Assembly: GCA_026770705.1 (NCBI GenBank)
Contig: JANJGN010000121.1
Coordinates: forward strand, 558,001-622,000
Direction: 5' to 3'
DNA: 64,000 nt
Origin: Isurus oxyrinchus
Lineage: Eukaryota
The position numbers and the translations under genes were made by a program. Of this stretch, positions 4,542 to 61,900 are shown piece after piece (position 1 is the stretch's first letter; the number at the start of each line of letters is the position of its first letter). The notes below the pieces were generated by a model, which was not told where the DNA came from, made no database searches, and worked only from the letters and a program-made list of their open reading frames with translations.

Positions 4542-4658
4542 CTAATATCTACAGCAGAGACCACAAGTCTCATTTGGTCCTCTCCAATTACAGCAGTGAC
4601 AGCAGAATCTGCAGAGCTGCTGTCTGCTCATTCTGTTCTGGCGCTGCAGCAAGGAGCC
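4542..4658 (-). CDS. HAMP: HAMP-like exon 3 (cleavage site and mature peptide)
   Basis: Acceptor ctcctgcttttccag|, GSLLQRQNR-MSRQQLCRFCCHCCNWRGPNETCGLCCRY-TAG. Confidence 0.93.
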   Translation of the reverse strand, partial: GSLLQRQNRMSRQQLCRFCCHCCNWRGPNETCGLCCRY

Positions 4659-7600
4659 CTGGAAAAGCAGGAGGACAATAGGTGAGAACATTCCGGAAAG
4701 AAAGAAGGCATCATTTCAATCAGGCGCGTCATTGGAAGGAGGATGGCGCATTTCTATAGCGCCTTTCCCCTCCTCAGGATGGCCCAAAGTGTTCCACAGC
4801 TGAAGGAAGGACTTTTTCTGAAGTGAGCTCACCGCTGTAATGTAGGAAACGCAGCAGGCAATTCACGCACAGCAAGATCCCACAAACAGAAATGTGATAA
4901 TGGCCCCGATTTTCAGTTTTTTACCAATGTCAGTTGAGGGATAAATGTTTGCCCCAGGAAAGCAGACATAACTCCACCCCATCCACCCCCCACCACCCCC
5001 TCCACACATACCCCCAACTCCTGACGCACTTCATTTAAATTGTGGCCATGGAATCCTCTACATCCATCTGAGAGGGCAGATGTTGTCTCAGTTTAACATC
5101 TCATCTGAAAGACAGCGCCTTCAACAGTGCAGCACCCCCTCAGTACTGACCGTCTGACAATGCAGCACCCCCTCAGTACTGACCGTCTGACAATGCAGCA
5201 CCCCCTCAGTACTGACCCTCCAACAGTGCAGCACTCCCTCAGTACTGGCTGTCTGACAATGCAGCACCCCCTCAGTACTGACCCTCCGACTGTGCAGTCC
5301 CCCGCCGGTACTGACCCTCTGACAGTGCAGCACTCCAAGACTGACCGTCTGACAATGCAGCACCCCCTCAGTACTGACCCTCCGACTGTCCTGCCCCCCC
5401 GCCGGTACTGACCCTCCGACAGCTCGGTAATTTCTCAATTATGCCTGGTGGTCCTTTTAATTCAGAGCTGAGAGTTGCAGAGAATCGAGCACACATCCTG
5501 AACTGACACTTGCAGTGCAAGTACTGGGAGCGCGCTGGTCATTATCATGCTGCTGTCTGTGGGATCTTACTGTGCGCCAATGGCTGATTCTTTTCCCACA
5601 GTACATCAGTGACCTCACATGAAAGAAAAAAAGCACTTGATTGTCTGCGAAACACTTTGGGACGTCCTGATGTGTTGGAAGGCGCTAGAGAAATGCAAGT
5701 CCTCTTTGTCTTTCACTCGATCCTCTAAGGTGTCTGTTGATTAACCAGCCTCTCGGTGTTTGATGTAGGCCTGGTTATAAACAGTTAGAAGGATCAAATA
5801 TCAAAAGTGCTTTGGCTGACAGTCAAACCGATTGTGCGTTCGGAGAGATTAGATATGGTCTGCACACAATGACTCCAGTCTCTGGCACTGACTGCCGCCT
5901 GGGGTCTCCCTTCCACATAACACTCACAACTTGCATTTACACAGCGCCTCTGACATTGCAAAATGTCCCAGCCCACATTACCGGAGCGTAAATCAGAGAG
6001 AAGTCTAACACTGAGTCACATATGGAGATATTAGGGTTAGGTGACCAAAAGCTTGGTCAAAGATGTCAGTTTTTAAGGAGCGTCTTAAAGGAGAGAGAGA
6101 GAGAGAGGCAGAGAGGTTAAGGGAGGGTATTCCGGAGCTCAGGGTCCCAGGCAGCTGAAGGCACGGCCACCAATGGTGGAGCGATGGGAATCAGGGGGAC
6201 CCGGGAGATGCAGTAATGTCAGAGATTTTGGAGGAACATCGGGACCGGAGGAGGTGTTCTCCTGCTCCATATCTCTCTCTCTCTTCCTCTCATCCACTCC
6301 TCCTCTCCCTGTCTCTCTCTCCTACTCTTCCTCTCAATTGCCCTCTCTCCCAATCTTTCTCTCCTCTCTCCCTTTTCCTGTCTCTCTCCCTCTCTCTCCC
6401 TGTCTCCTTCTCCCACTCTGTATCTCTCCCTCTCTCTCACACTATTTTTGTACCTTTCGCTCACTCTGTAACTCTCCCTTTCCTGTTAATTTCTCTCTCT
6501 TGGACAATCTCTCTTCCCTTTTCACTTTCCCTCACTCCGCATCTCTTCTTTAATTTCTCCCTCTGTCACTCTCTCCCACCTATGTTCTTTCCCTTTCACC
6601 CCTCCCCGTCCCACTCTCTGTCTCTCTCTTCCAATCCCTCCCTCCCCCATTCCATCCCTCTCTCCGACTCTCGACTCCCAGCCTCTCTTTAACCCACTCC
6701 CAGGCTGGATCAGTCTCCCTCTCACTATTCCCGGCGTGGGTTACATTTAAAATTCCTGTGGGGATATGTTCACTTCCTTGGAATTGCCTCTTCCCAGCTT
6801 TGCAAAAAAAGCGGTGGGGGGGGGCTCGATTTCAAACATGCCTCCTGAGTATAACCGAGACAGACTGCCACTGAAATCAGCTTGAAATCAGAAAACTTTC
6901 TGTGGAAGAAACGAGCAGGGAGAAACCTTAAAATAAGGAATGAATTTCCACCTACCGTGTCCGGGGAATCCACAGATTTCTCAATCGTCGAAGAACCTAA
7001 AGCAGTGTCAACCTGCAAAAAGAAAGAATTTATCAGGGAGAAAGTGAGAGGAGGATTGAGGGAGAGGGAGAGAGAGAGAGAGAGAGGTACAGGAGAGAGA
7101 GGGGGAGGAGGACAGACTTGCATTTCTCTAACGCCTTTCACCACATCCCAAAGCATTTCACAGCCACTGAAGGATGTTTTTGAAGTGCACTCACACTGTA
7201 GGAAATGTGGCAGCTGATTTGTGCACAGCAAGATCCCACAAATAGCAATGTGATCATGGCCAAGATCATCTGTTTTTGGTGATGTTGGGTGAGGGATAAA
7301 TATTGGTCCCAGGACACCGGGGAGAACACCCCCTGCTCTTCCTCCAAATAGTGGCTGTGGGATCTTTCACACCCGCCCGAGAGGGCAGACGGGGGACTCA
7401 GTTTAATGTCTCATTCAACATTGTTGTGCTCCCTCAGTACTAACCCTTTGACACTGCAGCACTCCCTCAGTACTAACCCTTCGATAGTGCTGCACTCCCA
7501 CCCTATTGTCCCTCCGTCAGTGCAGCGCTCCCTCAGTACTGACCCTCCGACAGTGCAACACTTCCACAGTACTGACCCTGTAACAATGCAGCACTTCCTC

Positions 7601-9404
7601 AGTACTGACCTCCGACAGTATAGCACTCACTCAGTACTGTCCCTCCAATAGTGCAACACTTCCACACTACTGACCCTCTGACAGTGCAGCACTCCCTCAG
7701 CACGGAGTGTTGACCGACGTTATGGGACTGAATTCCCTGGAGTGAGACTCAGACCAGAGATTTAGGTAGGGTTGTTCCGGCTGGAGGAGGTTACAGAGAT
7801 AGGGAGGGTTGTAGAGGCTGTAGGAGGTAACAGAGATAGGGAGGATTCTAGAGGCTGTAGGAGGTTACAGAGATAGGGAGGGTTGTAGGGGCTGTAGGAG
7901 GTTACAGAGATAGGGAGGTGAGTAGGGGCTGTAGGAGGTTAAAGAGATGGGGGGGTTGTGGGGGCTGGAGGTGGTTACAGAGGTAGGGAGGGTTGTAGAG
8001 GCTGGAGGAGGTTACCAAAATAGATACTGTTGTAGGGGCCACAGTAGGTTACAGAGATAGGGAGAGTTATAGTGTGGAGAGGACGTTATAGAGTTCATGA
8101 GCATTGTAGGGGCTGGAGGAGGTTACAGTGATTCTGAGGGTCGTGGGGCCTGGAGGAGGTTACAGAGATAGGGAGGGTTGTAGGGTCTGGAGGAGGTTAC
8201 AGAGATAGGGAGGGTTGTAGGGTCTGGAGCAGGTTACAGAGATAGGGAGGGTTGTAGGGTCTAGAGGAGGTTACAGTGATCATGAGGGTTGTGGGGTCTG
8301 GGGGAGGTTACAGAGATAGGTAGTGTTGTAGGGGCTGGAGGAGGTTACAGAGATAGGGAGGTTTATAGGGGCTGGAGGAGTTTACAGAGATAGGGAGGGT
8401 TGTAGGGGCTGGAGGAGGTTACGGAGATAGGGAGTGTTGTAGGGGCTGGAGGAGGTAACAGAGATAGGGACAGTTGTAGGGGCTGGAGGAAGTTACAGAG
8501 ATAGGGAGGGTTGTAGGGGCTGGAGGAGGTTACAGATATAGGGAGGGTTGTAGCGGCTGGAGAAGGTTACAGAGATAGGGAGGGGTGTAGGAGCTGGAGG
8601 AGGTTACAGAGATAGGGAGGGTTGTAAGGCCTGGTGGAGGTTACAGAGATAGGGAGGGGTGTAGGGGCTGGAGGAGGTTACAGAGATAGGGAGGGTTGTA
8701 GGGGCTGGAGGAGGTTACAGATATAGGGAGGGTTGTAGGGTCTGGAGCAGGTTACAGAGATAGGGAGGGTTGTAGGGTCTAGAGGAGGTTACAGTGATCA
8801 TGAGGGTTGTGGGGTCTGGGGGAGGTTACAGAGATAGGTAGGGTTGTAGGGGCTGGAGGAGGTTACAGAGATAGGGAGGTTTATAGAGGCTGTAGGAGGT
8901 AACAGAGATAGGGAGGATTCTAGAGGCTGTAGGAGGTTACAGAGATAGGGAGGGTTGTAGGGGCTGGAGGAGGTTACAGAGATAGGGAGGGTTGTAGGGG
9001 CTGGAGGAGGTTACAGATATAGGGAGGGTTGTAGCGGCTGGAGGAGGTTACAGAGATAGGGAGGGGTGTAGGGGCTGGAGGAGGTTACAGAGATAGGGAG
9101 GGTTGTAAGGCCTGGTGGAGGTTACAGAGATAGGGAGTGGCTGAGGAGGGATTGAAAACAAGAATGAGAATTTCAGGGGAAACGACAGAAGGAAATGAAG
9201 AGGGCGACAATATTAAAGGCACGAACATAATAATATCAAACTGCGGAAGTGACCAGTCTATCTGGGTGGTAGACGTAGAGTCATGTGCAAGAAACACCTC
9301 ACCCAGAGGGACATCTCTTAGCTTACCCTCGACAAGGAGAAGAAGTGACTCAGCTGCAGGGAGAGCAGCAAAGTCAGAGTGAACAAGACAAGTCGCCATT
9401 TCAT
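4542..9404 (-). CDS. HAMP: Hepcidin-like antimicrobial/iron-regulatory prepropeptide, 3 exons (9404-9327, 7012-6956, 4658-4542), 83 aa
   Basis: Spliced translation MKWRLVLFTLTLLLSLQLSHFFSLSR|VDTALGSSTIEKSVDSPDT|GSLLQRQNRMSRQQLCRFCCHCCNWRGPNETCGLCCRY*. Exons are 78/57/117 nt with GT-AG phase-0 introns. It has a signal peptide, an acidic pro-region, an RxxR convertase site and the hepcidin 8-Cys pattern CxFCCxCC..CGxCC. Confidence 0.92.
6956..7012 (-). CDS. HAMP: HAMP-like exon 2 (pro-region)
   Basis: Acceptor ttctttctttttgcag|, 57 nt encoding VDTALGSSTIEKSVDSPDT, donor ACG|gtaggt. Confidence 0.87.
7780..9140. repeat. 37-bp G-rich minisatellite in HAMP intron 1 (shorter copy at 52005-52805)
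   Basis: Unit ggaggaggttacagagatagggagggttgtaggggct. Confidence 0.92.
9327..9404 (-). CDS. HAMP: HAMP-like exon 1 (signal peptide)
   Basis: ATG at 9404, hydrophobic leader MKWRLVLFTLTLLLSLQLSHF, donor AGG|gtaagc. Confidence 0.9.
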
Positions 9405-9480
9405 CTGGGAGCTTCCCATCTCTGCCTGTCTCTTCTGATCTTCTGGCTCTGCTTTGATGCTTTGGTTTGTAACTAGAGGA

Positions 9481-9705
9481 GCTTCCTGCTCTTATACCTG
9501 AAACACTTGAAGGGGACAGCCGCGGGTGGGTAGCTGTGTGGTATCACACCCATTTCTGGATATTGCAGTGTCGATGTTCCCTGTCCCACTGGCCTGGGAC
9601 CAGCAGTAAGGTCACTGGGACATTGACTGTCTGGCGCCGAGAACTATCAGTCCCTCCGCAACGCCCTTCACCTTGTGCAAATATGTGTTCATATTGACGC
9701 AACAC
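9481..9705 (-). promoter_or_regulatory. HAMP-like promoter: TATAAG (9496-9491), GGCGCC-AGAC BMP/SMAD-like element (9629-9638), C/EBP-like sites (about 9673-9702)
   Basis: Motifs read directly from the sequence. GGCGCC and C/EBP sites are known elements of mammalian HAMP promoters. Retained in the duplicate at 53161-53385. Confidence 0.55.
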
Positions 9706-10364
9706 AACATAGCAAAAACATAGGGGCTGGTTCTTATGTCGGCAAATCAGGTGAACCACACGCCCCCTAACCCCTTACTCCTCTCATTGCTACACTTACT
9801 ATTTTACAAATTGTGTGCGTTGCTTTTATTTTGGACAAGGGGCCTCGAGGGGGAAATGATTTACATTTTGTAACCTCCTCCAGCCCCTACAACACTCCTT
9901 ATCTCTGTAACCTCCTCCAGCCCCTACAACCCTCCCTATCTCTGTAACCTCCTCCAGCCCCTGTAACCCTCCCCATCTCTTGAAGGGTTCTCAAAATTTC
10001 CAACTGTCAAGGAACCCTGGGTTGGTGAGCGTGACCCCTGACCTCTCCTAGTGCAATTTAGTTAGGGTTTGGGGGTGGGACAAGGGTAAGGGCATTAGTA
10101 GCGTGATTCTCCCTCGTTATGCCGTGTGTTCCCCATTCTTAACTCAGTGTACTTTGTAAGTCTGTATAATCTCAGCGTCATCCTAATGTTAGAAGTTCAT
10201 TTGTGACTTCAGTAAACTCAGTTTTTGTCTTGCACCAAAACCAGTTGTCTGCTGCACTTTGTGACAAGCCCCGAATAAGTCCAAGGTCTAGAACCCAGGG
10301 AGTGGGAGTGATTCAGACGGCTCAGAAGTCGCAGGTGAAGCTGACACACACCACCACACCCTAC

Positions 10365-10770
10365 AAGGGGCTGAATGGCCTCCTCCTGTTCCTGTGTAAT
10401 GGGCTTCAGTGGCTGAATGGCCTCCTCCTGTTCCTGTATAACGGACATAAGTGGCAGAATGGCCTCCTCTTGTTCCTGTGTAACGGACATAAGTGGCAGA
10501 ATGGCCTCCTCCTGTTTCTGTGTAACAGTCTTGAGGGGGCTGAATGGCCTCCTCCTGTTCCTGTGTAACAGTCTCGAGGGGGCTGAATGGGCCTCTTCCA
10601 GTTCCTGTGTAACAGGCTCGAGGGGACTGAATGGCCTCCTCCTGTTCCTGTGTAACAGGCTTGAGGGGGCTGAATGGCCTCCTCCTGTTCCTGTGTAACA
10701 GGCTCGAGGGGCTGAATGGCCTCCTCCTGTTCCTGTGTAACAGGCTCAAGGGGCTGAATGGCCTCCTTCT
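10365..10770. repeat. About 43-bp minisatellite (duplicate at 55960-56405)
   Basis: Unit gggctgaatggcctcctcctgttcctgtgtaacaggctcgagg. Confidence 0.88.
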
Positions 10771-11074
10771 GCACTGTAAAATTGTTGTGATACTGTAACT
10801 GCCTCTTTGGTTTCATTCAGCTGAATCTTCAGCTCTTCAGTCTCTTCCTTGTATCTCTTGCCTTCCTCCTGGAACATTGGACATGGTTGGGTCTTCCCTG
10901 CCAACTGTTTCTTCAGTTTGCTCAGAGCGGCACAGAATTCGCTTTCTTTCTCTTCAGGATTTTCCAGTGGAACCAACTCTGACCTGAGGGACACTTGCAG
11001 CCTGTGAGGATGCTTCAATTCTTCAAACTCATTCCGAGATACACTCTCATATTCCCCCAGCAACTCAGCAACTC

Positions 11075-12148
11075 CTCCAGTGAAACATTTCAGAGCAGCT
11101 GAGCTTGGTTTTCTGGAACCAGTCTCGGCCCAGAAGACTAGGGCCCTCACCTGTCGCTATGATCACTGGAAGCTGGGCTGTCTGCTGCCTGTAGGACACA
11201 GGTACTGGGATGAGGTCCTTTCCCTGTATGGATTCTCCAGTGTGTGTCTTCAGCTGATCCATTGTTGGCTCTAAATTCAGCGTCTGGGTTCCTTCATTTA
11301 GCTGTTTAAATGTGGGCTCTTCCACCACTGTGTCTGAGGCTCCCGTATCTGCCCCATTACTAGTGGCTGCCCATTCACTTGGGTTGTGATGGTTATAGGT
11401 TCAGTTTTTACCACTGTGACATTGGACAGGGAATAGACATCGGTATCAGCAGCTTCAGGCTCTGTGATATTATTCACTTCCATCATGTTGGTGCACTGCC
11501 TGATGGGCTGTCTCGATTTCACCCTGCATTGCTTTATTACCCGCCCCTTTCTTGTGACAGTGATGGCATTCTGCCCCCTTGAACCTGCAGGTGTCCGGTA
11601 TGAGCTCACTCCCCCCCACATCGAGAACAGGCCAACTTCGGAGTTGCTGCTGAAATACTCCCACGAAGCCTTTTAGTTTCTGGAGCGGCAGAGACTGTCT
11701 CTCGCTTGGCGGCTGTCTCTCCCTCTCTCTCTCTCTCTCTCTCTCCAGTTTGAGCCTCACGCCCGGTGGTTGTTTCCTGTCCCAGCTGAGGACTGGCGCC
11801 ATGTTGTACATCCTGTAAATCCCGCCAGTCTCTCCCAGCACTTTCCATGCCTGGCGCTATTTCCATGGTGCGCTTCAAATCGATGTCGGCTTCTGCGAGT
11901 AAACGGCTCTGAATGGCGTTGGGGTGAACGACACAAACCAATCGGCCCCGCAACATGTCATTGAGTGTGTCTCCGAGGTCCCAGTGCTCAGTCACCTGCT
12001 TCCACTTCACTGTATAGGTTGCGATGGACTCTCCCGGGGCCCTTACTCTGGAGTTAAACTTAAACCTCTGCATTATTACCCACGGCTTCAGCTGAAAATA
12101 CATCTTCATGAGGACGACTAATTGGTGAAAAGATTTAGAATTGGGTGT
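11075..12148 (-). mobile_element. Degenerate Ty3/Gypsy (K02A2.6-like) gag-protease fragment
   Basis: SKSFHQLV...QRFKFNSRVRAPGESIATY...LNDMLRGRLVC; zinc-knuckle remnants CSRCGG/CHHCHKKG; protease remnant GPSLLGRDW; frameshifted. Confidence 0.82.
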
Positions 12149-38046: not shown

Positions 38047-41000
38047 CTGGGGAGAGAAATATCAATGTTTAATTCTGGACGGTTTGTAGTTCCATTAGAC
38101 TTGATATCCACTCCCTCCATCATTGGGGCACAGTGGCTGCAGTGTGGACCATCTACAGGACACACAAGGAACTCCCCAAGGTTTCACAATGGTTGGAAGA
38201 GAATCCTGGACACAGGAGTGGACAAGTTCATTCTACATTGGCTCATGGTCCTCAGGACCCTGTTTAGTTTTTTCGAATTATTCATTCATGGGATTTATTA
38301 CCCATCCCATGTCCATCAGAGGCATTTAAGAGTCAACCACATTGCTTTGGGTTTGGAGTGACATGTAGGCCAGACTGGGTAAGGGTGGCAGATTTCCTTC
38401 CCTATAGGTGATCAGTGAACCAGGCTTTTTAATTCCATTCATCAGCTGTGATGGGATTCACACCCAGGGCCCCAGAGCATCACCCGGGGCCTCTGGAATA
38501 CTAGCCCAGTGACAATACCTCTCTGCTACCGCTTCCCCTTAGTGAAGCCAGTCTTCCACTCAGAACTCCCCCCATTATCACCGTCATGAATCACTAATTA
38601 GCCTAACATTCCTGTCTGCTCTTCAACACAGCTGATTGGCTAATCTGATTCAATCTGATTGGTGTTCATTCCCTCTTCAATGTTTAAGGAATCACCAATC
38701 ACTCGTCCTCTAGTTATTCTCCTGCCCACAAGAGGGAACATTCTCTGTCTACCCAGTCAATCAAAACCTTTCATCTAATCCTAGAGGTGCTTGAGTATAT
38801 AGTCGGGAATCCAGGGCAATGGAGCCTCAGGAGAAGAGATGGAAACCCTGTGAGGTGGAACGTCACTGAGGCCATCCGAGTTGAAGCAACTTTTGGAGAG
38901 AATTCCAAGGCAAGATCTTCGAAGTTGAAGATTGGAATCCCTCATGAGAGAATAGAGTTTCAGTGAGATTGGTTGACTGACAGTGTTCACTGATATCCGG
39001 GTGGGTTGTTGTGAAATCCATGGGCTCTATCTTGGTCGCGTTTACAATTTAATGAGTAATGTGGCTGTGAGACCACAGTTTGCCTGTTAATTCACATGAG
39101 CTCATATTAATCCAGAATGTTAGGGTATAAGGTGGATATTGTGAATTATTTTATCTTTCTGAGCTGGTGCAGTAAAGTTTATTTTTGTTTGTTTAAAAGC
39201 CATGGAATCTTGTAGCTTTATTCTCTTTGCAAGCGTCTTAAATCTCAAACCTCGTCTACTTGAAACAAAATATTATTGGTTCCTAACTGTAAATTACGAA
39301 AAAAATTGGGTGCCTGTTCCTCCATCAGCAACTCTTTAACCCTTTTATACCTCCAAGTAATAAGATTTTGTAAATGTATTCATTCATGGGATGTGGGCGT
39401 CGCTGCCAAGGCCAGCATTTGCTGCCCATCTCTAATGTCCCGTGACATAATCTCTGTAGCAGAGTAGAGACAATCATGATCACTCAGGATATTTGACATC
39501 TATCCACATGAGCAGCTTTACCTTCCTTCTCTCTTTCAGTTATCTTACTCCCTTATTGAAGTTTCTAGCATGGTGAGAACTGGATGGTTTGCTCGGACAT
39601 TTCAGAGGAACCACGTTGCTATGAGTCTGGAGTCACATGTAGGCCAGACCAGATATAGATGGCAGATTTCCTTCCCTAAAGGCCATTAGTGAACCAGATG
39701 AGTGTGTATGACAATCGATGATAGTTTCATGGTCTCCATTACTGAGACTAACTCCCATTAGTGTAAACAGAGTGAACAGTTTTCCATTGATCCCACCTTT
39801 CCCGTTCTCTCCGGTATTTTACACACTATTGCTCGATAATTTGATTCTGCCAAGGACCCCTTGGAAAATCATGGACCCCAGTTAGACAACCGATGGAATA
39901 AGGAATCTCTTTGGATTCTCATTGTCTAAGGAATCTCTTCGGATCCTCATTGTCTAAGGAATCTCTTTGGATCCTCATTGTCTAAGGGATTATTTCTGAT
40001 CCAAACCCCATATTGTTGTATTGTTGATTCCGATGCAGCATTGTAGACTGACTTGTCCCCAAGCTCAGCACTGACCCTACTCCAGCAGACACTGTGAAAC
40101 ACACTAACAAAGCGCCTCTAGCCTGAGCTCTGCATGTGTCGGAGTTGCCGTTGTGGTGGTTTCATGACTTTCAAAGATGCTGTTGTCATTTTTTTTGTTC
40201 AAACTGAACTGGGCCCCACATGAAGTGTTGATACCAGAAACCTCTTGTTCCCTGTCCTTCTGAAACATCTGTGATTCAACAGGATTCTGAAGATTTGCTG
40301 ATAAGGGTCTTAAATTGTCTGATTGTTGATTGATACAACACAGGAGGAGCTCATGTGACTCATCGTGCATGTGCTGACTCTTTCCCAATTCCTCTCCAAA
40401 ACCTTTCGCACATTCCTGCAAATTTCCCTTCAAGTATTTATCCAGTTCCCCTTCTGAAAGTTCCTGTTGAATCTGCTTCCACCGCCCTTTCAGGCAGTGA
40501 GTCAATGGTCTCTCTCTGAGCTGCAAAGTGCTCAGATTCCGTGAAATTTAAACTATGCAGCAGATCAGAGACACTCATGATAACTCAGAATATTTGACAG
40601 TTTTACACACAGACAGCTTTGCCTTCCTTCTCTCTTTCAGTTATCTTGCTCCCTTATTGAAGTATCTAGCATGGTGAGAATGGACAGGAAGTGTGACACT
40701 GAACAGCCTGTCTATTCTAGGAGCTGCTGTGTTGTCTTCATGGGAAGTTTTGAATAAAGGCAGCAAAGGACACAAATTTCAGGTCATTGCTATCGGAGAC
40801 CTCACATTAGGATAGGCTTCATCCCCCAGTTTTTATCCCTGCTTCTCTACTCAACACATCAATCCCCATCGCTCACTGACCAACGTCCGACAGCACCTGA
40901 ATTTCAAGATTCTGCTCTCGCTGCTACAAACCTGCTATCCCTGTAAACTCCTCCAGCCCCTACAACCCTTCAAGACCACTGGTCTACTCCAATTCTGCTG

Positions 41001-41173
41001 TCAGACAGGGAGTCAGTGTACATCAGTGAGCACAGGGGTGATGGGTGAACGGGACTTGGCGTGAGTTTGTACACTGGATCACTGCTGAATCAGTTCCCTA
41101 TCAGAGCTCAATAAGAATGATCTTTAACAAAGACTATTAACCATAAATCTGTCCGAGCTGACAATGGTATTAC

Positions 41174-41213
41174 CTTGCAGAAGTGACAGGAGGAAGTAAG
41201 ATTTCCCGATCAT
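41174..41213 (-). CDS. Siglec leader exon (coding part; exon starts at 41255)
   Basis: MIGKSYFLLSLLQ plus G, donor CAAG|gtaat (phase 1), acceptor ctttctctttcag. Confidence 0.82.
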
Positions 41214-41645: not shown

Positions 41646-41790
41646 CCAGGACCTGTCCGACTGCTCGCCTGGGGAGGAACTGCCCACACGCTCTGCTTGG
41701 GCTGAATGACCTCATCCTGTGCTGATCCATCTGTGTATTAAATTAGAAAAGGCTGATGTGTCACTGTGAGCCAAAATGAGGAAGTTGGAA
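41646..41790 (-). promoter_or_regulatory. Probable non-coding first exon and promoter of the long Siglec, with PU.1/ETS-like site
   Basis: Donor TGG|gtaagt at 41646; AAAATGAGGAAGT at 41773-41785 (plus-strand reading). Confidence 0.45.
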
Positions 41791-41849
41791 CAAAGTGAGT
41801 GAACAGCACTTAGCTGTGCACTGTCAGCAAACCCTGTGTCTGTATAAGA

Positions 41850-44780
41850 ATATAAGAACAGAACAAGTAGGATCAGCTGGACACCCTGACATTTTCATTC
41901 CTTGTATTCCATCCACTCATTTTTTTATCTACTCACTGAAACTATTTATCTCCCTCTGCAGCCTCTTTGTGTCCTCCTCACAACTTGCTTTCCTGCACAG
42001 CTTATATATTTCCTACCTATCTTCACCATACAGTCAGAAAATCTGCCTACAGTACAGTCAGTCTCTTCATCCAAGTCACTAATGTAGATTGTGAATAGTT
42101 GAGGCCTCAGCACTGATCCCTGTGGCTCTCCACTAGTTACAGTTTACCAAGCTGAAAATCACCCATTTATCCTGGCTCTCTGTTTCCTGTCAGTTCGCCA
42201 GTCCTCTATCCGTATTAATATATCCCCCCCAACACCATCCAATTTCACCCTGTGCATTGTCCTTTGATGTGGCACCTTATCGAATGCCTTTTGGAAATCC
42301 AATGTCATGAAGAGATATTTGTGTGTAAAATGTGCTTTGAAATTATTATTTAAAATAGAATTCTAGTGGTGGTCCATGTATAGGTGTGTGTCTGGGTGTG
42401 TCTTAATTGGATTAAAGCCAGCTGGTCTGTGTGCTTTGATGTTTAGTAGTTTTGAGATGTTAATTGGGTGAATTGTGAGGAGAACAGTAAAGTGTTCATT
42501 TGCAATTGTTGAATAAACCATTCCAGACTGGGGGTAAAATCTTGCACCTAGTTAGAAGGAGCCAAAAGATGTGTTTTTTCTTGTTTTTACTAATGAAATT
42601 GGTGCTATGAAAGAGGGTTTTATTGTTCGACGAGCTGGAGTTCAGAAGTCCGAGTGATACAATGGAAAATTTACATTCAAAGGGAAAGCTAGTTATATAA
42701 AGGAAGGAGTTTGTGTGTGTGAGGCAGGAGCATTTCAGACCTAACCAGCCTGTAGCCTCCAACCAACTAGCAAAGGAACCTCATTCGGAATTCGTAATGT
42801 CAAATGTGCTTTGCCTGGTGTCTATATTATGTCAATGGTTCATTGTTGCCTTAGTAGAGATTTTCATGGGGGTGATTAATTGGGGGATTTGTTAAAAAGT
42901 TATTATAGTAGTTATTTGTAGCCAATGTGTATGTGTTAAATTAATAAATGGTTTATTTAGTTTTATATAAAAAACCCACAATCCTCGGTGGTCTTATTCC
43001 TACTGAATTCAAAGTCTTCATCTCGAAATTACAAACAGCAAAATTGGGTTATGACAGTTGTTTCAATTTTCCCTCTGGGATTTGAACAACTCAGCCTTTA
43101 CCCTTGGCTGTGTCATAGTCCCTAATACACCATGTCTACAGGTTCCACTTTATCCAATCCACTTGTTCCATCCTCGAGGAAATCTAATAATTTTTTCAAA
43201 CATGATATCCCTTTCACAAACCCATGTTGACTCTGTCTGATTGAATTATGGTTTTCTAAATGTCCTGCTGCTCCCTCCTTCATAATGAATTCTGGTATTT
43301 TCCCAATGACAGATATTAGACTACCTGACCTGTAGTTTCTTGCTTTCTACCTCCCCCCTTTATTGAACAGATGTGTTTTATTTATGTTTTTCCAATCCGC
43401 TGGGACCTTCCCATAATCTAAGGAATTCTGGAAGATTACAACCAATGCATCCACTGTCTCTGCAGCCATTTCCTTTCAGACCCTCACATTCAGGCCGTCT
43501 GCTCCATGGGACTTGTCAGCATTTGTCTCATTAGTTTTCTTAATACTTTTTCTCTGGTGATAGTGATTGTTTTATGTTCCTCCCTCCTTGTTGCACCGTG
43601 ACTTTCTCCTGCTATTGGGATGGTTTTAGAGATTTTTACTGTGAAGACAGACCCAAAATTCTTGTTGAAAGTCTCTGTCATTTCCTGTTTCCCATTATTA
43701 ATTCCCCAGTCTGATTTTCTATGTGTCCCATTATTACTGTAGCTTCTCTCTTATTTTAATGTACAACATCTCACTGTCATTGTTTATGGTTCTTGCTAGT
43801 TTACTCTCATATCATCATTTCTGCCTCCTTATATTTCTCCCCTCACTTTTCTGGTTTCTCAAATATTCCCAATCTCCAGCCTATCACTAAGCATCCCAAC
43901 ATTGCCGGCTTTATCTCACAATTGGATACCGTCCTTAGCTTCCTGAGTTAGCCGCCGATGCTCCATCCTTCTTATAGATTCTTTCTTTCTTACTGGAAAA
44001 TATCTTCATTGGCATTTATGAAACATCTCTTTAGACACCTGTTACTCCTCATCTACACCCCCCCCCCCTTAAACCTGCTGTCCCACTCTACTTGGGCCGA
44101 CTCTACTTTTAACCCTTGTAATTGCCTTTAGTTAAGTTTATGACACTAGCTTCAGACCCAAGTTTCCAAATTGAATATTAAATTTCAACACCGTATGATT
44201 ACTCTTCCCTTGAGGATCCTTTACAATGAGATGTTAATTAGTCTTGTCTCATTAAACATTGCCAGGACTAAAACAGCCTCTACCCTGGTTGGTTCCATGT
44301 TGCATTGTTCTAAAATACTGTCCTGAATACAATCTGTATAACCTCGCTGAAAGCTACATTTGCTAATCTGATTTGTCTAATCCATATGACGATTGAAAAC
44401 TCCCATGATTAATGTGGTGCCTTTCTCACAGACCTCCTCATGTATTGATTTATAATCTACCCCTGCAGTGTAACTACTGTCAGGGGGGAGTATAAACCAA
44501 CCCACCAGTGATTTCTTTCCCTTGCAATTCCTTATATTCACCCAAACTGACTGTGCATCTTGACATCTGAGCCAAAATCATTTCTCACTACTTTACAGGT
44601 CTCATCTTTTATTAACAGAGCTACCCCACCTCCTTTTCATTTTTCCTATCCTTTCAAAGATTCCAAATATCCTTCAATTTTCAATTTCCAACCTTGGTCA
44701 CCTTGCAACCAACTCTCTGCAGTGTCCATCTTATCGTACCCATTAATCTCTATTTGTGCTATAACTTCATTCATTTGTTC
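41850..44780 (-). mobile_element. Degenerate CR1 LINE with nested LTR-like insert (42303-43119)
   Basis: Minus strand reads VTSGEPQGSVLRPQLFTIYISDLDE near 42060-42140; LINE sequence resumes after 43120. Confidence 0.75.
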
Positions 44781-45930
44781 CAACTTTATATTTTATATAT
44801 TCATTCTTCCATGGGAAGTGGGCATCACTGGCTAGGCCAGCATTTATGGCCCATCCTTAATTACCTTGAGAAGGTGGTGGTGAGCTGCCTTCCGGACCCT
44901 CTGCACTCCATGTGGTGTAGGTACACCCACAATGCAGTTAGAGAAGGAAGTCCAAGATTTTGACCCTAGTGACAGTGAAGGAATGGCGATATATTTCAAA
45001 ATCAGGATGATGTGTGTCTTGGAGGCGAACTTCCAGGTGGTGGTGTCTGGGCATTTCAATCCCTTGTGACAATAAATGTAATATTATAGAAAATGCAAAG
45101 GCTTCTTGTAATCTATCACAGAATAAACAAGTTGCAGAATTCAGAAAGCACTTTCTGAAATGTCAACAAAGTTCAGTGACATCACATTTCTGCTAATTAC
45201 TATTCGGCCATGTTGGCTGCATGCAGTCAGGCAGTCCCTCGGTTGTGATGTGTCCACACAGCAGTACTGGGATGCATCAGCATCAAAGGACATGCTTAGT
45301 TGTTGCCGTGCAATGCATTTATTGCGAGGCTGTTGCACACACGCCCTGTCGATGGACCCTCTGAATTACCATTCTGAATCGAGGCAGATCAACTTTCCTG
45401 CAACAACTTGCATTTATATGGCACACTTAATGTAACAAACTGTCCCCAATCTCTTCAGGGGATTGTTACCTACATATAAATCCATCTCTGAGACACATAA
45501 TGAGGTATTAGGGACAGGTGACAAAAAGCTGATTTCACAAAGCCAGTTAATNNNNNNNNNNNNNNNNNNNNNNNNNNNNNNNNNNNNNNNNNNNNNNNNN
45601 NNNNNNNNNNNNNNNNNNNNNNNNNNNNNNNNNNNNNNNNNNNNNNNNNNNNNNNNNNNNNNNNNNNNNNNNNNNNNNNNNNNNNNNNNNNNNNNNNNNN
45701 NNNNNNNNNNNNNNNNNNNNNNNNNNNNNNNACTGAATCTCTGTCCCCAATGACTCAGCATCAAGTCGTCACTGGGGAAACATTTCATTCCAAACCACAC
45801 CAACCACAGACCCATTCAGTCCCTTCCTCCCTCTCTCCCCCTCTACCCCAGTGGGTTGTCTCATGTTCCCAAGAATCTTCATCCCTGCCACCATCCACAA
45901 ACCTCCTGACCACCTCTGCCTTTTTCACGC

Positions 45931-46179
45931 TCAGTTTCGCTTGAATCTGATCTGTGCGTATTCCGTCTGCTCTTCCCTGTGGACAGACCCATCACCACTG
46001 GGCACCCTGAAGACTTGGGGATTGGCGTAGAGAAGCTCGTTGGGATTGTCAGAGTTCCCATGTCCAGCATCGCCTCCCACTGCACATTCAGAGACACCCC
46101 GGGGAGCTGGGGTCTCCCCCTCGCTAGTTGTATCTCTGGTTGTGTTCCGGGGCTCAGAAATCAGCACGTTCTGTTTACC
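45931..46179 (-). pseudogene. Orphan Siglec terminal tail exon copy (LLYANP...TEYAQI)
   Basis: 249 nt open frame; 45060-45240 resembles the 3' UTR at 19505-19670. Confidence 0.75.
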
Positions 46180-46635
46180 CTACAGAGAAATGGAAACAGA
46201 AGGCATCCTCACATCATTTACTGGCACTGATAGGGTTAAAATATTCTGCAGCCTCGTTAGTGTCAGTCGTGGGTCAGTGGGTTTAACCCTCTCTCACATG
46301 TCTTATGAAAGAAAACACCTATGGCAGTGCAGTGCTCCCTCAGTACTGACCCTTCGATAGTGCAGCACTTCCTCAATGCTGACCATCCGACAGTACAGGT
46401 CTTCCTCAGTACTGACCCTCTGACAGTGCAGCACTCCCTCAGTACTGACCCTCTGACAGTGCAGCACTCCCTCAGTACTGACCCTCTGTCAGTCTTGCAC
46501 TCCCTCGGTAATGGCTCTGGCGAGTGTCGGCTTGGATTCTGCACTCAGGTGCCTGGTGTGAGGCTCAATAACATGAATCTTGTAATCAGAGAGAGGATGA
46601 GAGAGAGAGAGAGAGATGAAGGGTCAGAGACTGAG

Positions 46636-47393
46636 CGTTATGAATCTATTAATGTATGTATTGTAATTGGAAATTGTCTTTTTAAACAGAGGTTTAGTCT
46701 GTGGGTGTGTGTGTGTGTGTTTTAATTGGATTAAAGACAGCCGGTCTGGGTACTTTTATGTATAGTAGTTTTGAGATGTAAACAAAGAGGTAAAGAGGCA
46801 TATTGCATTTTTAAAAGGAGGATTCAAAGCCTGGGAGTGAATTCTTAAACCAATCAATGTTTATATTACTAATAAAATTGATACTATGAAACGGGATTTA
46901 TAGTTAGAAGAGATGGAGATCAAAGGTCCTGATGATACAATGAGAATTTACATTCAAAGAGAAGCACTGGGTATAACTTGAGCAGTTTTGTGTGTGCAGA
47001 GCAGAGGCTTGTAACATCAAAGCAGCTGTAAGCCTACACCTGTCTGCAAAGGAACCAAAGTGAAAGGAACCTCATTTGGAATTTCTGAGGTGAAAATGCT
47101 TCGCTTGGAATCTGCTTAAAGTCTATGGGTTGTCTTAGAGGACGTTAGTTTGGGAATTTGTTAAATAGTTATGATAATACTAGTTTGTAGCCATGTGCAT
47201 ATGATTAACTTGTGAAAATTAATAAATGTCTCATGTAGTTTGATATAAACCCATCTCAAGAACTGATGGTCTTATTCCTGAATTTAGAGCTGCATCTCAA
47301 ACATTCCACTGGGAAATATAGGTTATGACAGTTGTTTAAAGTTTCCCTCTGGGATTTTAAACAACAGCCTTTACCAGTTGCTGTGTCATAACA
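46636..47393 (+). mobile_element. Solo-LTR-like insertion in the orphan Siglec last intron
   Basis: Absent from the paralogous intron at about 21030; ends in ...TCATAACA; similar to 42303-43119. Confidence 0.6.
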
Positions 47394-47528
47394 GAGAGAC
47401 AGCATGATACTGAACCATTGCTGACTCCACAGGTACAAATCAGTGGGTAACTGGGCTGGGAATCTGGGACATGTGTTGTCTACACACTGAGATTGAAGCT
47501 TTGGAGTGAGTGTAAACAGCTCCTGTAC

Positions 47529-47610
47529 CTGGTGCTTCACAGAGAGTGGACTGGGAGTCAATACAATGTCACTGGTCCCTGAAACTCTCTCCTCCATCGC
47601 TGTCTTTCTC
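47529..47610 (-). pseudogene. Orphan Siglec cytoplasmic exon 1 copy
   Basis: RKTAMEERVSGTSDIVLTPSPLSVKHQ; no upstream TM exon found. Confidence 0.75.
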
Positions 47611-47744
47611 CTGTAATAACAAAATATCACACTGTGGTTATCATATAGCAGAGAGTCAGTGTAGCACAGACACAGAGCCCACTGTAATCTTAGACCAACG
47701 ACTGGGACTGTCTCTTTAAATCAGTTCTATACAAAGCACAGAAT

Positions 47745-48210
47745 CAAGAAGCTTGACACCATCCAGGACAAAGCAGCCCGATTGATCTACACCCCATCCC
47801 CCACATTAAACATTCACTCCCTCCACAACGAACACACAGTGGCAGCAGTGTGTGTACCATCTACAAGATGCACTGCAGCAACTCAGCAAGGCTCCTTCAA
47901 CAGCACCTTCCAAACCCACGACCTCTACCATCTAGAAGGACAAGGGCAGCAGACACATGGGAACACCACCACCTGGAAGTTCCCCTCCAAGTCACTCACC
48001 ATCCTGACTTGGAAATATATCACCGTTCCTTCACTGTCGCTGGGTTAACATCCTGGAGCTCCCTCTCTAACAGCACTGTGGGTGTACCTACACCACATGG
48101 ACTGCAGCGGGTCAAGAAGGCTGATCACCACCACCTTCTCAAGGGCAATTAGGGATGGGCATTAATGCTGGCATCACCAGTGACAGCCACATTCGATGTA
48201 AGAATTAAAA
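47745..48210 (+). mobile_element. 3' end of a LINE of the same family as 265-2215
   Basis: KKLDTIQDKAARLI followed by 3' UTR and a short A-rich tail. Confidence 0.75.
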
Positions 48211-48533
48211 ATCTCACAGCTCAATGTATTTATTGGGATCCTCCTGCACACACGCCCTGTCGAAGGAGCCTTTGTGGTTCCATTGTTAATCGAAGCAGAT
48301 CAGACTTACTGCAACTACTTGCATTTATATAGGACCTTTAATGTAGCAAAATGTCCCAAGGCTCATCCGGGAATTGTTAGTCACATCTTCACCTGACTCT
48401 GAGGCACATGAGGAGATATAAGGGACAGGAGACCAACAGCTGAGTCAACAAAGTCAGTTATTAACGGGCATCTTAAAGGAGGAGCTGGAGATAGAGAATG
48501 AGTGACAGACACAGAAAGAAAGACAAAGAGAGG

Positions 48534-48569
<36 letters not shown>

Positions 48570-48767
48570 GTGAATCTCTATCCCCAGTGGCTCAGCATCC
48601 AGTCCTCTCTGGAGAAGCATTTCATTCCAAACCACAGCAACCGCAGCCCAATCGCATCCCTTCCTCCCTCTCTCCCCCTCTCCCCCAGTGGGTTGTTTCC
48701 TGTTCCCAGGAATCTCAATCACTACCCCCACCCTCACACCTCCTCACTCCCACTCCCCATTTCTCAT

Positions 48768-49016
48768 TCAGTTATGCTCGAACCTGATCTGTGCGTATTC
48801 CGTCTCCTCTTCCCTGTGGACAGACCCATCATCACTGGACATCCTCAATACTTGGGGATTGGCGTAGAGAAGGCCGTTGGGATTGTCGATGTGCCAATGT
48901 CCAGCATCGCCTCCCAATGCACCTTCAGAGAGACCCCGGGGAGCTGGGGTCTCCCCCTCACTAGTTGTGTCTCTGGTTGTGTTCCGGGGCTCAGTAATCA
49001 GCACGTTCTGTTTACC
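48768..49016 (-). CDS. Orphan Siglec terminal tail exon (LLYANP...TEYAQI); phase-compatible with HAMP duplicate exon 2
   Basis: 249 nt open frame, intact acceptor, paralog of 19698-19946. Confidence 0.7.
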   Translation of the reverse strand, partial: GKQNVLITEPRNTTRDTTSEGETPAPRGLSEGALGGDAGHWHIDNPNGLLYANPQVLRMSSDDGSVHREEETEYAQIRFEHN

Positions 49017-51114
49017 CTACAGAGAAATGGAAACAGAAGACATCCTCACATTATTTACTGGCACTGATAGGGTTAAATATTGAGCAGCCTCATTAGTGTC
49101 AGTCTTGTCTCAGTGGGTTTAACCCTCTCTCTCATGTCATCTGAAAGAAACCACCTATGGCAGTGCAGTGCTCCCTCAGTACTGACCCCCCCGACTGTGC
49201 AGCACATCCTCAATAGTGACCCTCTGTCAGTCTCACACTCCCTCTGTACAGTGCAGCACTTCCTTAGCACTGACCCTCCAACAGTGCAGCACTCCCTTAG
49301 CACTGACCCTCTGACAGTGCAGCACTCACTCAGTACTGACCCTCCATCAGTGCAGCACTCCCTTAGCCCTGACCCTCTGACAGTGCAGCACTCCCTCAGT
49401 ACTGACCGTCTGACAATGCAGCACCCCCTCAGTACTGACCCTCCGACTGTGCAGTCCCCCGCCGGTACTGACCCTCTGACAGTGCAGCACTCCAAGACTG
49501 ACCGTCTGACAATGCAGCACCCCCTCAGTACTGACCCTCCGACTGTCCTGCCCCCCCGCCGGTACTGACCCTCCGACAGCTCGGTAATTTCTCAATTATG
49601 CCTGGTGGTCCTTTTAACTCAGAGCTGAGAGTTGCAGAGAATCGAGCACACATCCTGAACTGACACTTGCAGTGCAAGTACTGGGAGCGCGCTGGTCATT
49701 ATCATGCTGCTGTCTGTGGGATCTTACTGTGCGCCAATGGCTGATTCTTTTCCCACATTACATCAGTGACCTCACATGAAAGAAAAAAAGCACTTGATTG
49801 TCTGCGAAACACTTTGGGACGTCCTGATGTGTTGGAAGGCGCTAGAGAAATGCAAGTCCTCTTTGTCTTTCACTTGATCCTCTAAGGTGTCTGTTGATTA
49901 ACCAGCCTCTCGGTGTATGATGTAGGCCTGGTTATAAACAGTTAGAAGGATCAAATATCAAAAGTGCTTTGGCTGACAGTCAAACCGATTGTGCATTCGG
50001 AGAGATTAGATACGGTCTGCACACAATGACTCCAGTCTCTGGCACTGACTGCCGCCTGGGGTCTCCCTTCCACATAACACTCACAACTTGCATTTACACA
50101 GCGCCTCTGATATTGCAAAATGTCCCAGCCCACATTACCGGAGCGTAAATCAGAGAGAAGTCTAACACTGAGTCACATATGGAGATATTAGGGTTAGGTG
50201 ACCAAAAGCTTGGTCAAAGATGTCAGTTTTTAAGGAGCGTCTTAAAGGAGAGAGAGAGAGAGAGGCAGAGAGGTTAAGGGAGGGTATTCCGGAGCTCAGG
50301 GCCCCAGGCAGCTGAAGGCATGGCCACCAATGGTGGAGCGTTGGGAATCAGGGGGACCCGGGAGATGCAGTAATGTCAGAGATTTTGGAGGAACATCGGG
50401 ACCGGAGGAGGTGTTCTCCTGCTCCATATCTCTCTCTCTCTTCCTCTCATCCACTCCTCCTCTCCCTGTCTCTCTCTCTCCTACTCTTCCTCTCAATTGC
50501 CCTCTCTCCCAATCTTTCTCTCCTCTCTCCCTTTTCCTGTCTCTCTCCCTCTCTCTCCCCTGTCTCCTTCTCCCACTCTGTATCTCTCCCTCTCTCTCAC
50601 ACTATTTTTGTACCTTTCGCTCACTCTGTAACTCTCCCTTTCCTGTTAATTTCTCTCTCTTGGACAATCTCTCTTCTCTTTTCACTTTCCCTCACTCTGC
50701 ATCTCTTTAATTTCTCCCTCTGTCACTCTCTCCCACCTATGTTCTTTCCCTTTCACCCCTCCCCGTCCCACTCTCTGTCTCTCTCTTCCAATCCCTCCCT
50801 CCCCCATTCCATCCCTCTCTCCGACTCTCGACTCCCAGCCTCTCTTTAACCCACTCCCAGGCTGGATCAGTCTCCCTCTCACTATTCCCGGCGTGGGTTA
50901 CATTTAAAATTCCTGTGGGGATATGTTCACTTCCTTGGAATTGTCTCTTCCCAGCTTTGCAAAAAAAGTGGGGGCGGGGGGGGTTCGATTTCAAACATGC
51001 CTCCTGAGTATAACCGAGACAGACTGCCACTGAAATCAGCTTGAAATCAGAAAACTTTCTGTGGTAGAAACGAGCAGGGAGAAACCTTAAAATAAGGAAT
51101 GAATTTCCACCTAC

Positions 51115-58938: not shown

Positions 58939-61900
58939 CTTCAGTTCCTCATCTAAATGGAAAATGATAAAGACAGAGACTTTTTCAGAAATTGTCCCCA
59001 GTGTTTCTTCCTCAAACAACAACAACTTGTGTTTAAATGGCACCTTTCAGGGAATTAAACAGCCCCAGGGAATTATCTAATGTCAAGACAAGGAAGGAGA
59101 GATTGAGAAGGGACATCGCAAACCGATTCACCAAACACGGCAAAAATTCATTGTTCCCTCACTCCCTGTGCTGGGTGTCCAGCTTTTTCTCTCAGTGAGT
59201 TTAGTCCTACAATATCTATCTATCGCATTCTTCTGCTCTATCTCTCTCTCTCACACACACATTCTCTCTCTAACACTCACAATCTCTATCTATCGCACTC
59301 TTCTGCTCTATCTCTCTCTCTCTCTCACACACACATTCTCTCTCTAACACTCACAATCTCTCTCTNNNNNNNNNNNNNNNNNNNNNNNNNNNNNNNNNNN
59401 NNNNNNNNNNNNNNNNNNNNNNNNNNNNNNNNNNNNNNNNNNNNNNNNNNNNNNNNNNNNNNNNNNNNNNNNNNNNNNNNNNNNNNNNNNNNNNNNNNNN
59501 NNNNNNNNNNNNNNNNNNNNNNNNNNNNNNNNNNNNNNNNNNNNNNNNNNNNNNNNNNNNNNNNNNNNNNNNNNNNNNNNNNNNNNNNNNNNNCTCCCTC
59601 ACACACACACACTCTCCCTCACAGACACACACACTCTCTCTGATACGCACAATCTCTCCCTCACACACACAGAATCTCTCTCACACACACACACTCTCCC
59701 TCACACACACATCCTCCCTCACACACACACACACTCTCTCTGATACGCACAATCTCTCCCTCACACACACACACAATCTCCCNNNNNNNNNNNNNNNNNN
59801 NNNNNNNNNNNNNNNNNNNNNNNNNNNNNNNNNNNNNNNNNNNNNNNNNNNNNNNNNNNNNNNNNNNNNNNNNNNNNNNNNNNNNNNNNNNNNNNNNNNN
59901 NNNNNNNNNNGTACACACTCTTTCTAACTCTTTTTCTCTCTCACAGACTCTCTCTGTCTCTCTCTGTCTCTCTCTCTCTCAGACACACTCTCTCTAATAC
60001 GGAAGGTTGTGGTTTTAAGACGTGCTCATGATTTCTGCTCAAAACCCAGGCAGATTCTCCCCAGTGAGGGAGTACTGAGGGTGTGCTGCACTGTCAGAGG
60101 GTCAGTACTGAGGGAGTGCTGCACTGTCAGAGGGTCAGTACTGAGGTAGTGCTGCGCTGTCAGAGGGTCAGTAGTGAGGGAGTGCTGCACTGTCAGAGGG
60201 TCAGTACTGAGGGAGTGCTGCACTGTCAGAACTGTCGTAATTCAGATGATGTTTGAAATTAGCAACATGCCTCGTGTAACATTCTATATCATCAGCTCAA
60301 TATAAATAGATTAGTCCTGTATGTTTCACTTCACTGCAAATTGTTCATGGTTTCATTTCCTTGTTAACCAGGCTCATGTGATGACTATTTTTAAATAATG
60401 TTTGTTATTTGGAACAAGGGGCCATGCCTGAACAGATAACTGTCGGATCAAGCAGCTGGGTTTTTTCTTGAACCTGGCTTCATTCAGATGTTTGCTGCTG
60501 GACATGAGATCATTAATGTGTGAATGTAGAATCGGAGTCACCTCAGTGAACAGCAGCATTGGTTGAACAGCCTGATCTGCAATAAGAACTGCTGAACACA
60601 ATGTCCGTGCAGAACAGCTCGGTCCCCGATCAGAGAAACAGCCTCAGACAGAACCAACTGACGCTGGAATCCATACAATTCATCAACGTGTTGGGAGTTA
60701 GTTTGATGTCGGAGTTGGAGTGTTACTGGGAAGGAGGGAACCCGTCAGGATGAACAGCTCGATGTACGACAAGGAAAGGATGAGCTAAGAGGGGTTGGTC
60801 ACGGACAGACGGAGCGTGTGAAGACTCAACAAGCTAATGGCAGGTGAAGAGCTGGAAAGGTGTCTTTTCAACACAAGGTTTAGACACAGAACTCGATGTT
60901 TGATTGGGTATTTCAAACCAGAGAAACTCTTTACAGGGTGAATGGACCTTGTCAATAATCCATCCAGCCAACCTCACCTGGAGATTAGTCCAATATTAGA
61001 CACTAAACCGAGACCCCCGTCTGCCCTCTCGGGCGGGTGTGAAAGATCCCACAGCCACTATTTGGAGGAAGAGCAGGGGGGAGATCTCCCCGGTGTCCTG
61101 GGACCAGTATTTATCCCTCAACCAACATCACCAAAAACAGGTGATCACATTGCTGTTTGTGGGAGCTTGCTGTGCGCTAATTGGCTGCTGCGTTTCCTAC
61201 ATTACAACAGTAACCACACTTCGAAAAAAGGGTGAACTCAACTGTAAAGTGTTCTGGGACATCCAGAGACCATGCTGTACAGAAGAGATTTGACAGGAGC
61301 AGCAAGTGTTTTACTTACAGGAGAATGAGTCCCCAGGGTTGTAGAGTCAATCCTGTCAGATGAATGTCTAACTGGAGACACTTCAGGGAGCTGATCTAAT
61401 TCTGGAAATGTTCAGTTTAGCAGGATCGGAGGAGAGATGATCTTCCTCTCCTGACTGCATCGGACACGAGGTGAACTGGCTCTGGGAGGAGGGTCAGTGT
61501 TAACCCAGTTTTTCTGTGTTTGAGGGAGATGTGAAACTGGGGAAGTCACGTGGTTTTTTGGTGTGGTCACTCCATGTCTTTATTTGGTGCAGCACTCATT
61601 TAGTTCATGTCATTGTTTCAATGCTACAAAACCACAGCGCATTCTGGACTATTCCTGCCTGACCTGCTGTCAGATACACACAGTCTGACAGAGAGGCGGA
61701 AAAGTGGTCCCTAGCAACGTGTGAAACTGTAAACTCGGCTCAGTCAGAATGCACACGCAGACACACACACACACGTACACACACACACACACGTACACAC
61801 ATTTTCTCTTGTTCATTCTTTTAAACACACACACTCCCTCTCAAATACACACACCCTCTCTCGCACACTCCTTCTCTCAAACACATACACCCTCTCTCTC

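Follow-up and report, generated by a model that had tools for sequence, protein, structure and literature searches.

Introduction

Hepcidin is single-copy in most vertebrates, and larger families have been described in teleosts, with 6 hepcidin genes in croaker (PMC6240063) and 12 in Nile tilapia (PMC8774982), the highest published count found. Teleost type-1 hepcidins start with Q-S/I-H-L/I-S/A-L and act on ferroportin; type-2 hepcidins (sea bass hamp2) lack this start, are diverse and are antimicrobial (PMC8502971). The mature region of HAMP2 was reported to be under positive selection, and the HAMP1/HAMP2 split to be peculiar to spiny-rayed fish (PMC3325200). For mammals, a HAMP-FFAR-USF2 neighbourhood was stated (PMC4453067). 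Here, the hepcidin and Siglec genes of a 64,000-nucleotide stretch of shark DNA were analyzed (Isurus oxyrinchus, assembly GCA_026770705.1, contig JANJGN010000121.1, positions 558,001 to 622,000 of the forward strand). The whole stretch is referred to as the window, and its contig as C121.

The window is best understood as a slice of a multi-megabase Siglec cluster in which dozens of hepcidin copies lie between broken Siglec 5' halves. They were likely multiplied by Siglec recombination, and the intact ones are likely varied host-defence peptides, not the iron hormone. A probability of roughly 0.6 is assigned to this reading. The array is the largest hepcidin family that we could find on record.

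Hepcidin gene of the window

The whole window contained a single 8-Cys exon of the hepcidin pattern (4658-4542, minus strand). It belongs to the only complete hepcidin-pattern gene (9404-4542), which encodes a precursor of 83 codons in three exons with GT-AG introns:

9327..9404, minus strand: exon 1, 26-amino-acid signal peptide, GT donor (exon 1-2 junction in RNA contigs)
6956..7012, minus strand: exon 2, 19 amino acids of the prodomain, AG/GT boundaries (joint with exon 3 seen in all four runs)
4542..4658, minus strand: exon 3, RQNR cleavage site and 29-amino-acid peptide that has 8 Cys and an N-E-T sequon but no His3 (Pfam and Cys pattern)
9405..9864, minus strand: promoter, with GGCGCC at -234 and a C/EBP-like site at -276 (sequence reading)

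Exon 3 reached 30.4 bits against Pfam Hepcidin (PF06446), above the curated cut-off of 27, and together with the 8-Cys pattern this supports the hepcidin identity proposed in an earlier sequence-only reading of the window. A PDB search with exon 3 alone returned 0 matches, and a 13-row profile of shark peptides matched PDB 1S6W hepcidin weakly (E=0.3), amid ribosomal-protein noise. The AlphaFold model of exon 3 was helical and of low confidence (predicted local distance difference test, pLDDT, 57.8) and was not used.

Scale of the array and copy states

Hepcidin exon 3, searched against the shark's own genome, had 92 matches (94 scored). Of these, 89 had 76-100% identity and were located on 14 contigs (13,775,895 bases in sum), 2 had 57% identity and were located on contig C34, and 1 was insignificant. 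A search with the V exon of the window's long Siglec yielded at least 150 matches at 83% identity or more, among 1,082 candidates, on the same 14 contigs and C1130. Contig C52 (4.17 Mb) alone held 30 exon-3 loci, 17 of them intact.

For copy states, 10 kb around each of the 88 exon-3 loci beyond the window were read. Intact three-exon genes were present at 43 of the 89 loci. The others had an exon-1 donor changed from GT to TT, presumably a null allele (36), lacked exons 1-2 (4), were frameshifted (3), had an altered acceptor (2) or retained a partial exon 1 (1). There were 45 distinct exon-3 sequences and 40 distinct mature peptides, 21 of the latter among intact genes. All 43 intact copies retained the 8 Cys; their cleavage site was RQKR in 34, the weaker RQNR in 7 (the window's copy and 6 others) and HQNR in 2. 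Birth-and-death amplification, suggested earlier from the window, is thus supported, on a larger scale (89 exon-3 loci) than first guessed.

C121 and contig C150 differed by 0.74% over 9,148 bases at a shared PPP2R1A end, and because of this low divergence they probably represent two haplotypes of one region. Since both haplotypes are in the assembly, the haploid exon-3 count is about 45, with bounds of 30 (C52 alone) and 89. Pairwise divergence among array copies had a median of 1.8%, and 6 cross-contig locus pairs were less than 0.3% apart. Allelic (0.74%) and paralogue (~1-2%) divergences overlap, so pairing by near-identity failed to sort array contigs into haplotypes. C121 and C150 carried different numbers of hepcidin and SiglecB units at different spacings, which suggests copy-number polymorphism within one animal.

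Hepcidin between broken Siglecs

A same-strand V exon of the SiglecB type was found 6.7-11.5 kb upstream of 67 of the 89 hepcidin exon-3 loci. 2,000 random placements, scored for a SiglecB V exon 5-15 kb upstream, averaged 3.8 such loci and never exceeded 11. The SiglecB V exon search returned 119 matches at 118 loci, 16 of which had long open frames; all 67 paired exons had short frames, and hepcidin was not paired with any of the 16 long-frame loci. Downstream, 13 intact copies were checked: that of the window and 12 selected to span contigs from a random draw of 20. All 13 had an opposite-strand Siglec C2 exon at 8-10 kb, and in 12 it was the same half exon. Given the cut SiglecB upstream and the inverted Siglec downstream, the repeated cassette consists of a hepcidin gene between two inward-facing broken Siglec 5' halves.

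One long-frame SiglecB V exon, read through, was complete and lacked the sialic-acid Arg (F-Y-V). At 1.12-1.14 Mb of C150 (loci L140 and L178-L180), a SiglecB gene had a complete Arg-less V domain followed by C2, transmembrane (TM) and tail exons.

Phylogeny and variation

Two canonical hepcidins were located on C34 (19.9 Mb) at 15.20 and 15.23 Mb, with RQKR followed by M-S-H-L-S-I and His3 retained. Over exon 3 they were 92% identical to basking-shark LOC144671611 protein (P0001). A tree of the array copies with a full exon 1 (5 loci lacking it were excluded) placed the 84 array copies and the C34 pair in separate groups (support 100/100, midpoint root). His at mature position 3 was found in 0 of 89 array loci; all 86 in-frame exon-3 copies had the N-E-T sequon.

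Diversity was 0.046 in the mature peptide, 0.0015 in exon 1, 0.0018 in exon 2 and 0.007-0.017 in introns and 3' untranslated region. The outer flanks reached 0.04-0.07, probably because rearrangement edges were included. When variants present in at least 3 of the 79 full-length exon-3 copies were counted, the mature part held 16 in 87 nt, 15 of them non-synonymous, against 39 in 741 nt of non-coding sequence (Fisher p=6e-5), and exons 1-2 held 0 in 135 nt against the same 39 in 741 (p=0.002). One codon carried three different replacements, the N-terminal residues were among the most variable, and both copies with a single Cys substitution carried the null donor. In the four-gamete test, 48 of 91 site pairs failed, and the null donor required 13 changes on the tree; both point to conversion between copies.

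Expression

Expression was assessed on assembled contigs of four runs of one sample, presumably RNA (X1, X2, X4 and X9). The exon 2-3 joint, with ~2,297 bases skipped, was present in all four, and nine X1 contigs ran on into exon 1. Exon bins reached 1.4e5-6.5e5 in X1, X2 and X4, with non-repeat intron bins hundreds of times lower, and ~1e2 in X9. The contigs held both alleles at position 4579, plus canonical-type ends. In this sample, the family is transcribed and spliced.

Siglec genes and duplicon of the window

The remaining features of the window were:

5118..17097, no strand assigned: duplicon copy 1 (window self-alignment)
49275..61751, no strand assigned: duplicon copy 2 (window self-alignment)
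51115..53084, minus strand: HAMP', exons 1 and 2 only, without mature-peptide exon (no second 8-Cys exon in the window)
12135..13302, minus strand: SiglecB fragment, signal exon 13302-13257 and V exon 12436-12135 with a stop before the F-G strands (sequence reading and profile search)
57771..58938, minus strand: SiglecB' fragment, cut as in SiglecB (sequence reading)
10820..12130, minus strand: retroelement-like remnant, probably gag/protease-like, in place of the remaining SiglecB (Pfam gag-asp_proteas E=0.0066, below cut-off; junction seen)
19698..41213, minus strand: long Siglec, signal exon from 41213, V exon from 38046, one C2-set_2 exon and 13 near-identical C2 exons, TM exon 22220-22122, cytoplasmic exon, and tail with motifs of the immunoreceptor tyrosine-based inhibitory (ITIM) type (profile and structure matches)
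45931..49016, minus strand: headless orphan Siglec tail exons 49016-48768, 47610-47528 and 46179-45931 (sequence reading)
63626..63913, plus strand: C2 exon belonging to the 3' half of an inverted, headless Siglec, which extends beyond the window (sequence reading)

The order SiglecB' - HAMP' - tail exons - long Siglec - SiglecB - HAMP and the shared minus-strand orientation were as described in the sequence-only reading. Its parts are mostly not whole genes: HAMP' lacks exon 3, the V exon of both SiglecB and SiglecB' is truncated, and the long Siglec carries a TGA. Likewise, the ~13-kb duplicon said to carry SiglecB and HAMP is present, at ~12 kb (98.2% identity across 6,489 non-repeat bases in self-alignment), and the mature-peptide exon was not copied with it. 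An uncollapsed haplotype is an unlikely explanation of the duplicon because the two copies lie in tandem on one contig, their flanks differ, and they diverge by 1.8%, versus 0.74% measured between two haplotigs.

HAMP' as a second peptide gene was ruled out, as it has no exon 3; the duplicon edge sits inside a 33-bp minisatellite of intron 2, which accounts for the loss. HAMP' exons 1-2 retain GT donors, and the next acceptor is that of a phase-0 Siglec tail exon (53084-48768, minus strand), so that an in-frame fusion transcript of signal, prodomain and ITIM tail is predicted to be possible.

SiglecB and SiglecB' had no C2, TM or tail exons, and their V exon stops where the retroelement-like fragment begins. 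The long Siglec comprises V, 14 C2, TM and an ITIM-type tail, with an F-strand Arg in its V-set domain, whose best solved-structure matches were sialoadhesin (top), MAG and Siglec-5. Its reading frame is interrupted by an in-frame TGA at 38011-38009 in the V exon. Since six other loci were identical over the searched part and had a longer open frame, this TGA would be a private mutation or a base error. C2 stalk length varied across genes of the Siglec cluster, and the long-Siglec stalk contains a 2.1-kb internal duplication (27333-30495, >99% identical), which either arose very recently by duplication of an exon pair or reflects a slip in the assembly.

Genomic neighbourhood

On C34, three Siglecs were located at 15.13-15.19 Mb next to the canonical hepcidins, and the only 3 FFAR-like matches of the genome at 15.27-15.51 Mb. 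The exon adjoining a 100-N gap at 15,110,242 encodes residues 105-168 of the PP2A A-subunit (PPP2R1A), and the following exon (residues 169-221) sits at the ends of C150 and C121. The C121 end and the C34 gap edge share a similar purine-rich repeat. C121 thus appears to join C34 through a split PPP2R1A, with the array continuing from the gap, ~1 Mb from the window; alternatively, a 3' part of PPP2R1A may have been duplicated. With FFAR-like genes, canonical hepcidins, Siglecs and PPP2R1A ~1 Mb away, the proposed orthology with the human HAMP region is supported, and the canonical HAMP paralogue predicted from the window was found as the two M-S-H-L-S copies. Of the expected flanking markers, FFAR genes were placed on C34, and USF2, LSR and MAG were not located beside the locus.

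No bHLH (basic helix-loop-helix) match for USF2 was obtained on C34 among 127 matches, a search in which split exons are easily missed, and short motif scans over 400 kb of C34 were negative. LSR-family matches on contigs C18, C452 and C1620 were not linked to the locus, and 100 kb at the C452 locus showed neither Siglec nor hepcidin features. A family search for TMEM147 found no match anywhere in the genome and is uninformative. The LSR/ILDR-family exons at C452:60361 and C1620:70134, both on small contigs, scored equally and are probably another haplotype pair.

In the canonical genes (L019, C34:15.205-15.209 Mb; L022, 15.236-15.239 Mb), ~3 kb of mostly 33-bp minisatellite separates the TATA region from the GGCGCC-bearing segment. 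This stretch is bounded by a short direct repeat and is absent from array copies. A chemerin/formyl-peptide-receptor-like G-protein-coupled receptor gene was seen 190 kb beyond the C34 gap (L143:2244-3461, minus strand). A short Arg/Lys-rich open frame (L161:3927-4211, plus strand) is a candidate protamine-like sequence.

Discussion

The proposed course of events would begin with a single founding rearrangement that put hepcidin between broken Siglecs. The hepcidin cassette would then have been copied as Siglec repeats recombined by unequal crossing-over and inversion. Gene conversion would shuffle peptide variants and also spread the null splice allele, and selection would preserve precursor and cysteines and favour new surface residues. 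The array peptides may target microbes rather than ferroportin, like teleost HAMP2. This functional step is taken by analogy, because teleost type-2 hepcidins without the same N-terminal motif are antimicrobial. The two canonical C34 copies likely keep the iron role.

Several points weigh against this reading. 46 of the 89 loci look dead, and the count of 89 is itself inflated by two haplotypes. When all variants were counted, the excess in the mature part over non-coding sequence was not significant (p=0.08). The ratio of 22 non-synonymous to 1 synonymous changes carries little weight by itself (p about 0.09, a hand calculation). The p-values of the variant counts are generous since copies share ancestry and are not independent. 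The net charge of intact array peptides was 0 to +4, mostly +2, compared with +5 for the canonical peptide. The GGCGCC element lies nearer the gene in 73 of 84 array copies than in the canonical copies, which could mean iron or BMP control. The RNA contigs stem from one sample of one study, the RNA label is a guess, and they speak for the family as a whole, not for levels or individual loci.

The alternative that survives best, at low probability, is that the hepcidin cassette rides along as a passenger in an unstable Siglec cluster and varies through relaxed constraint and conversion. The broken loci, the null donor scattered over the tree in 36 copies, the all-variant result, and the 10 of 40 listed exon-1 matches that had no listed exon 3 nearby are consistent with it. 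Relaxed constraint fits poorly with exons 1-2 being less variable than the non-coding flanks, with the cysteines retained in every intact copy and the null donor carried by both copies with a single Cys substitution, with three different replacements in one codon, and with abundant spliced transcripts in three runs.

A slightly less probable view holds that the array peptides retain an iron-regulating role or act as ferroportin decoys or antagonists, with their dose lifted by amplification. It is in line with the retained hepcidin scaffold and the promoter-near GGCGCC element, and some croaker Hamp2 peptides alter intracellular iron (PMC6240063). Against it, 0 of 89 array loci had the S-H-L-S start, which both C34 copies and basking-shark P0001 keep, and the highly variable N-terminus contrasts with the constraint that a single host target should impose on these residues.

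It is doubtful that Siglec and hepcidin were co-selected as a functional module. Such a module could consist, for example, in a promoter used by both, in secretion of the cut V domain, or in glycosylated peptides binding nearby Siglecs. Pairing is fixed upstream and downstream, the N-E-T sequon is invariant, and the cut V exons (21 distinct sequences) showed 16 non-synonymous to 12 synonymous changes, a per-site ratio of 0.38, which may however stem from conversion by whole SiglecB genes. At one X2 contig end, hepcidin exon 2 is joined to the signal exon of SiglecB, but out of frame. Both flanking Siglecs are cut, long-frame SiglecB loci are never paired with hepcidin, and the whole SiglecB lacks the sialic-acid Arg. 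The sequence-only reading's idea of working sialic-acid receptors co-amplified with the peptide as one functional module is not supported: the Siglec pieces of the cassette are broken, long-frame SiglecB loci stay unpaired, and the window duplicon does not copy the peptide exon. An extension of the host-defence reading is a little more doubtful still: the peptides could form a recombination-shuffled library, maybe of sialylated glycopeptides that attack microbes and engage neighbouring Siglecs. The N-glycan site in the loop of all members would make secretion in that form possible.

An assembly artefact, with the high count produced by uncollapsed haplotypes or mis-joined repeats, is barely credible: C121 and C150 do share terminal PPP2R1A exons and some cross-contig pairs are nearly identical, but two haplotypes at most double a count, C52 alone holds 30 loci, and the median divergence and the 45 distinct exon-3 sequences argue for real copies.

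Comparison with known systems

A protein database search for array-type precursors gave none (1 candidate, no scoring match; weak evidence). Among titles of the hepcidin and Siglec literature on sharks and cartilaginous fish, with subscription journals and supplements outside the scope, no report of a shark hepcidin expansion was found, and the accessible parts of PMC9207270, PMC6795676 and PMC3832898 describe none. The bulk of the array lies on unplaced contigs, which may explain why it was overlooked. A separate and larger shark expansion would show that a split of HAMP1/HAMP2 type can re-evolve, and would make it testable whether antimicrobial and iron roles part whenever a spare hepcidin copy exists. 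The 21 natural variants of one small scaffold offer structure-activity material, and the locus illustrates how a small gene could be amplified by landing within an unstable receptor cluster.

The C34 copies resemble HAMP1 of mammals, teleosts and the basking shark in keeping RQKR and M-S-H-L-S-I, an N-terminus that the array copies lack. The records of P0001 and of several Siglec proteins, all from the basking shark, give the same contig size (13,667,426).

Like the CD33-related Siglec clusters of human 19q13.4, the shark cluster has V-set domains with an F-strand Arg, ITIM-type tails, many pseudogenes and inversions, and PPP2R1A alongside; human PPP2R1A presumably lies beside the CD33-related Siglecs. 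The shark cluster differs in having 150 or more close V exons within a single assembly, stalks of varying length with up to 14 C2 domains, and the embedded peptide-gene cassette. Siglec-like relatives from elasmobranchs numbered 105.

Like acanthopterygian HAMP2, the array genes are three-exon, 8-Cys and multi-copy, with a canonical copy kept alongside; they lack the Q-S/I-H-L/I-S N-terminus, and variation is concentrated in the mature peptide. Unlike HAMP2, the array has several times more copies, an 8-residue loop, an invariant N-E-T sequon and a cassette between broken Siglecs. Because its introns are only 5-12% from those of the same shark's canonical hepcidin gene, its origin is independent of HAMP2 and it is not a member of that lineage. 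On our best reading, drawn by analogy, the array would be an independent shark analogue of teleost HAMP2.

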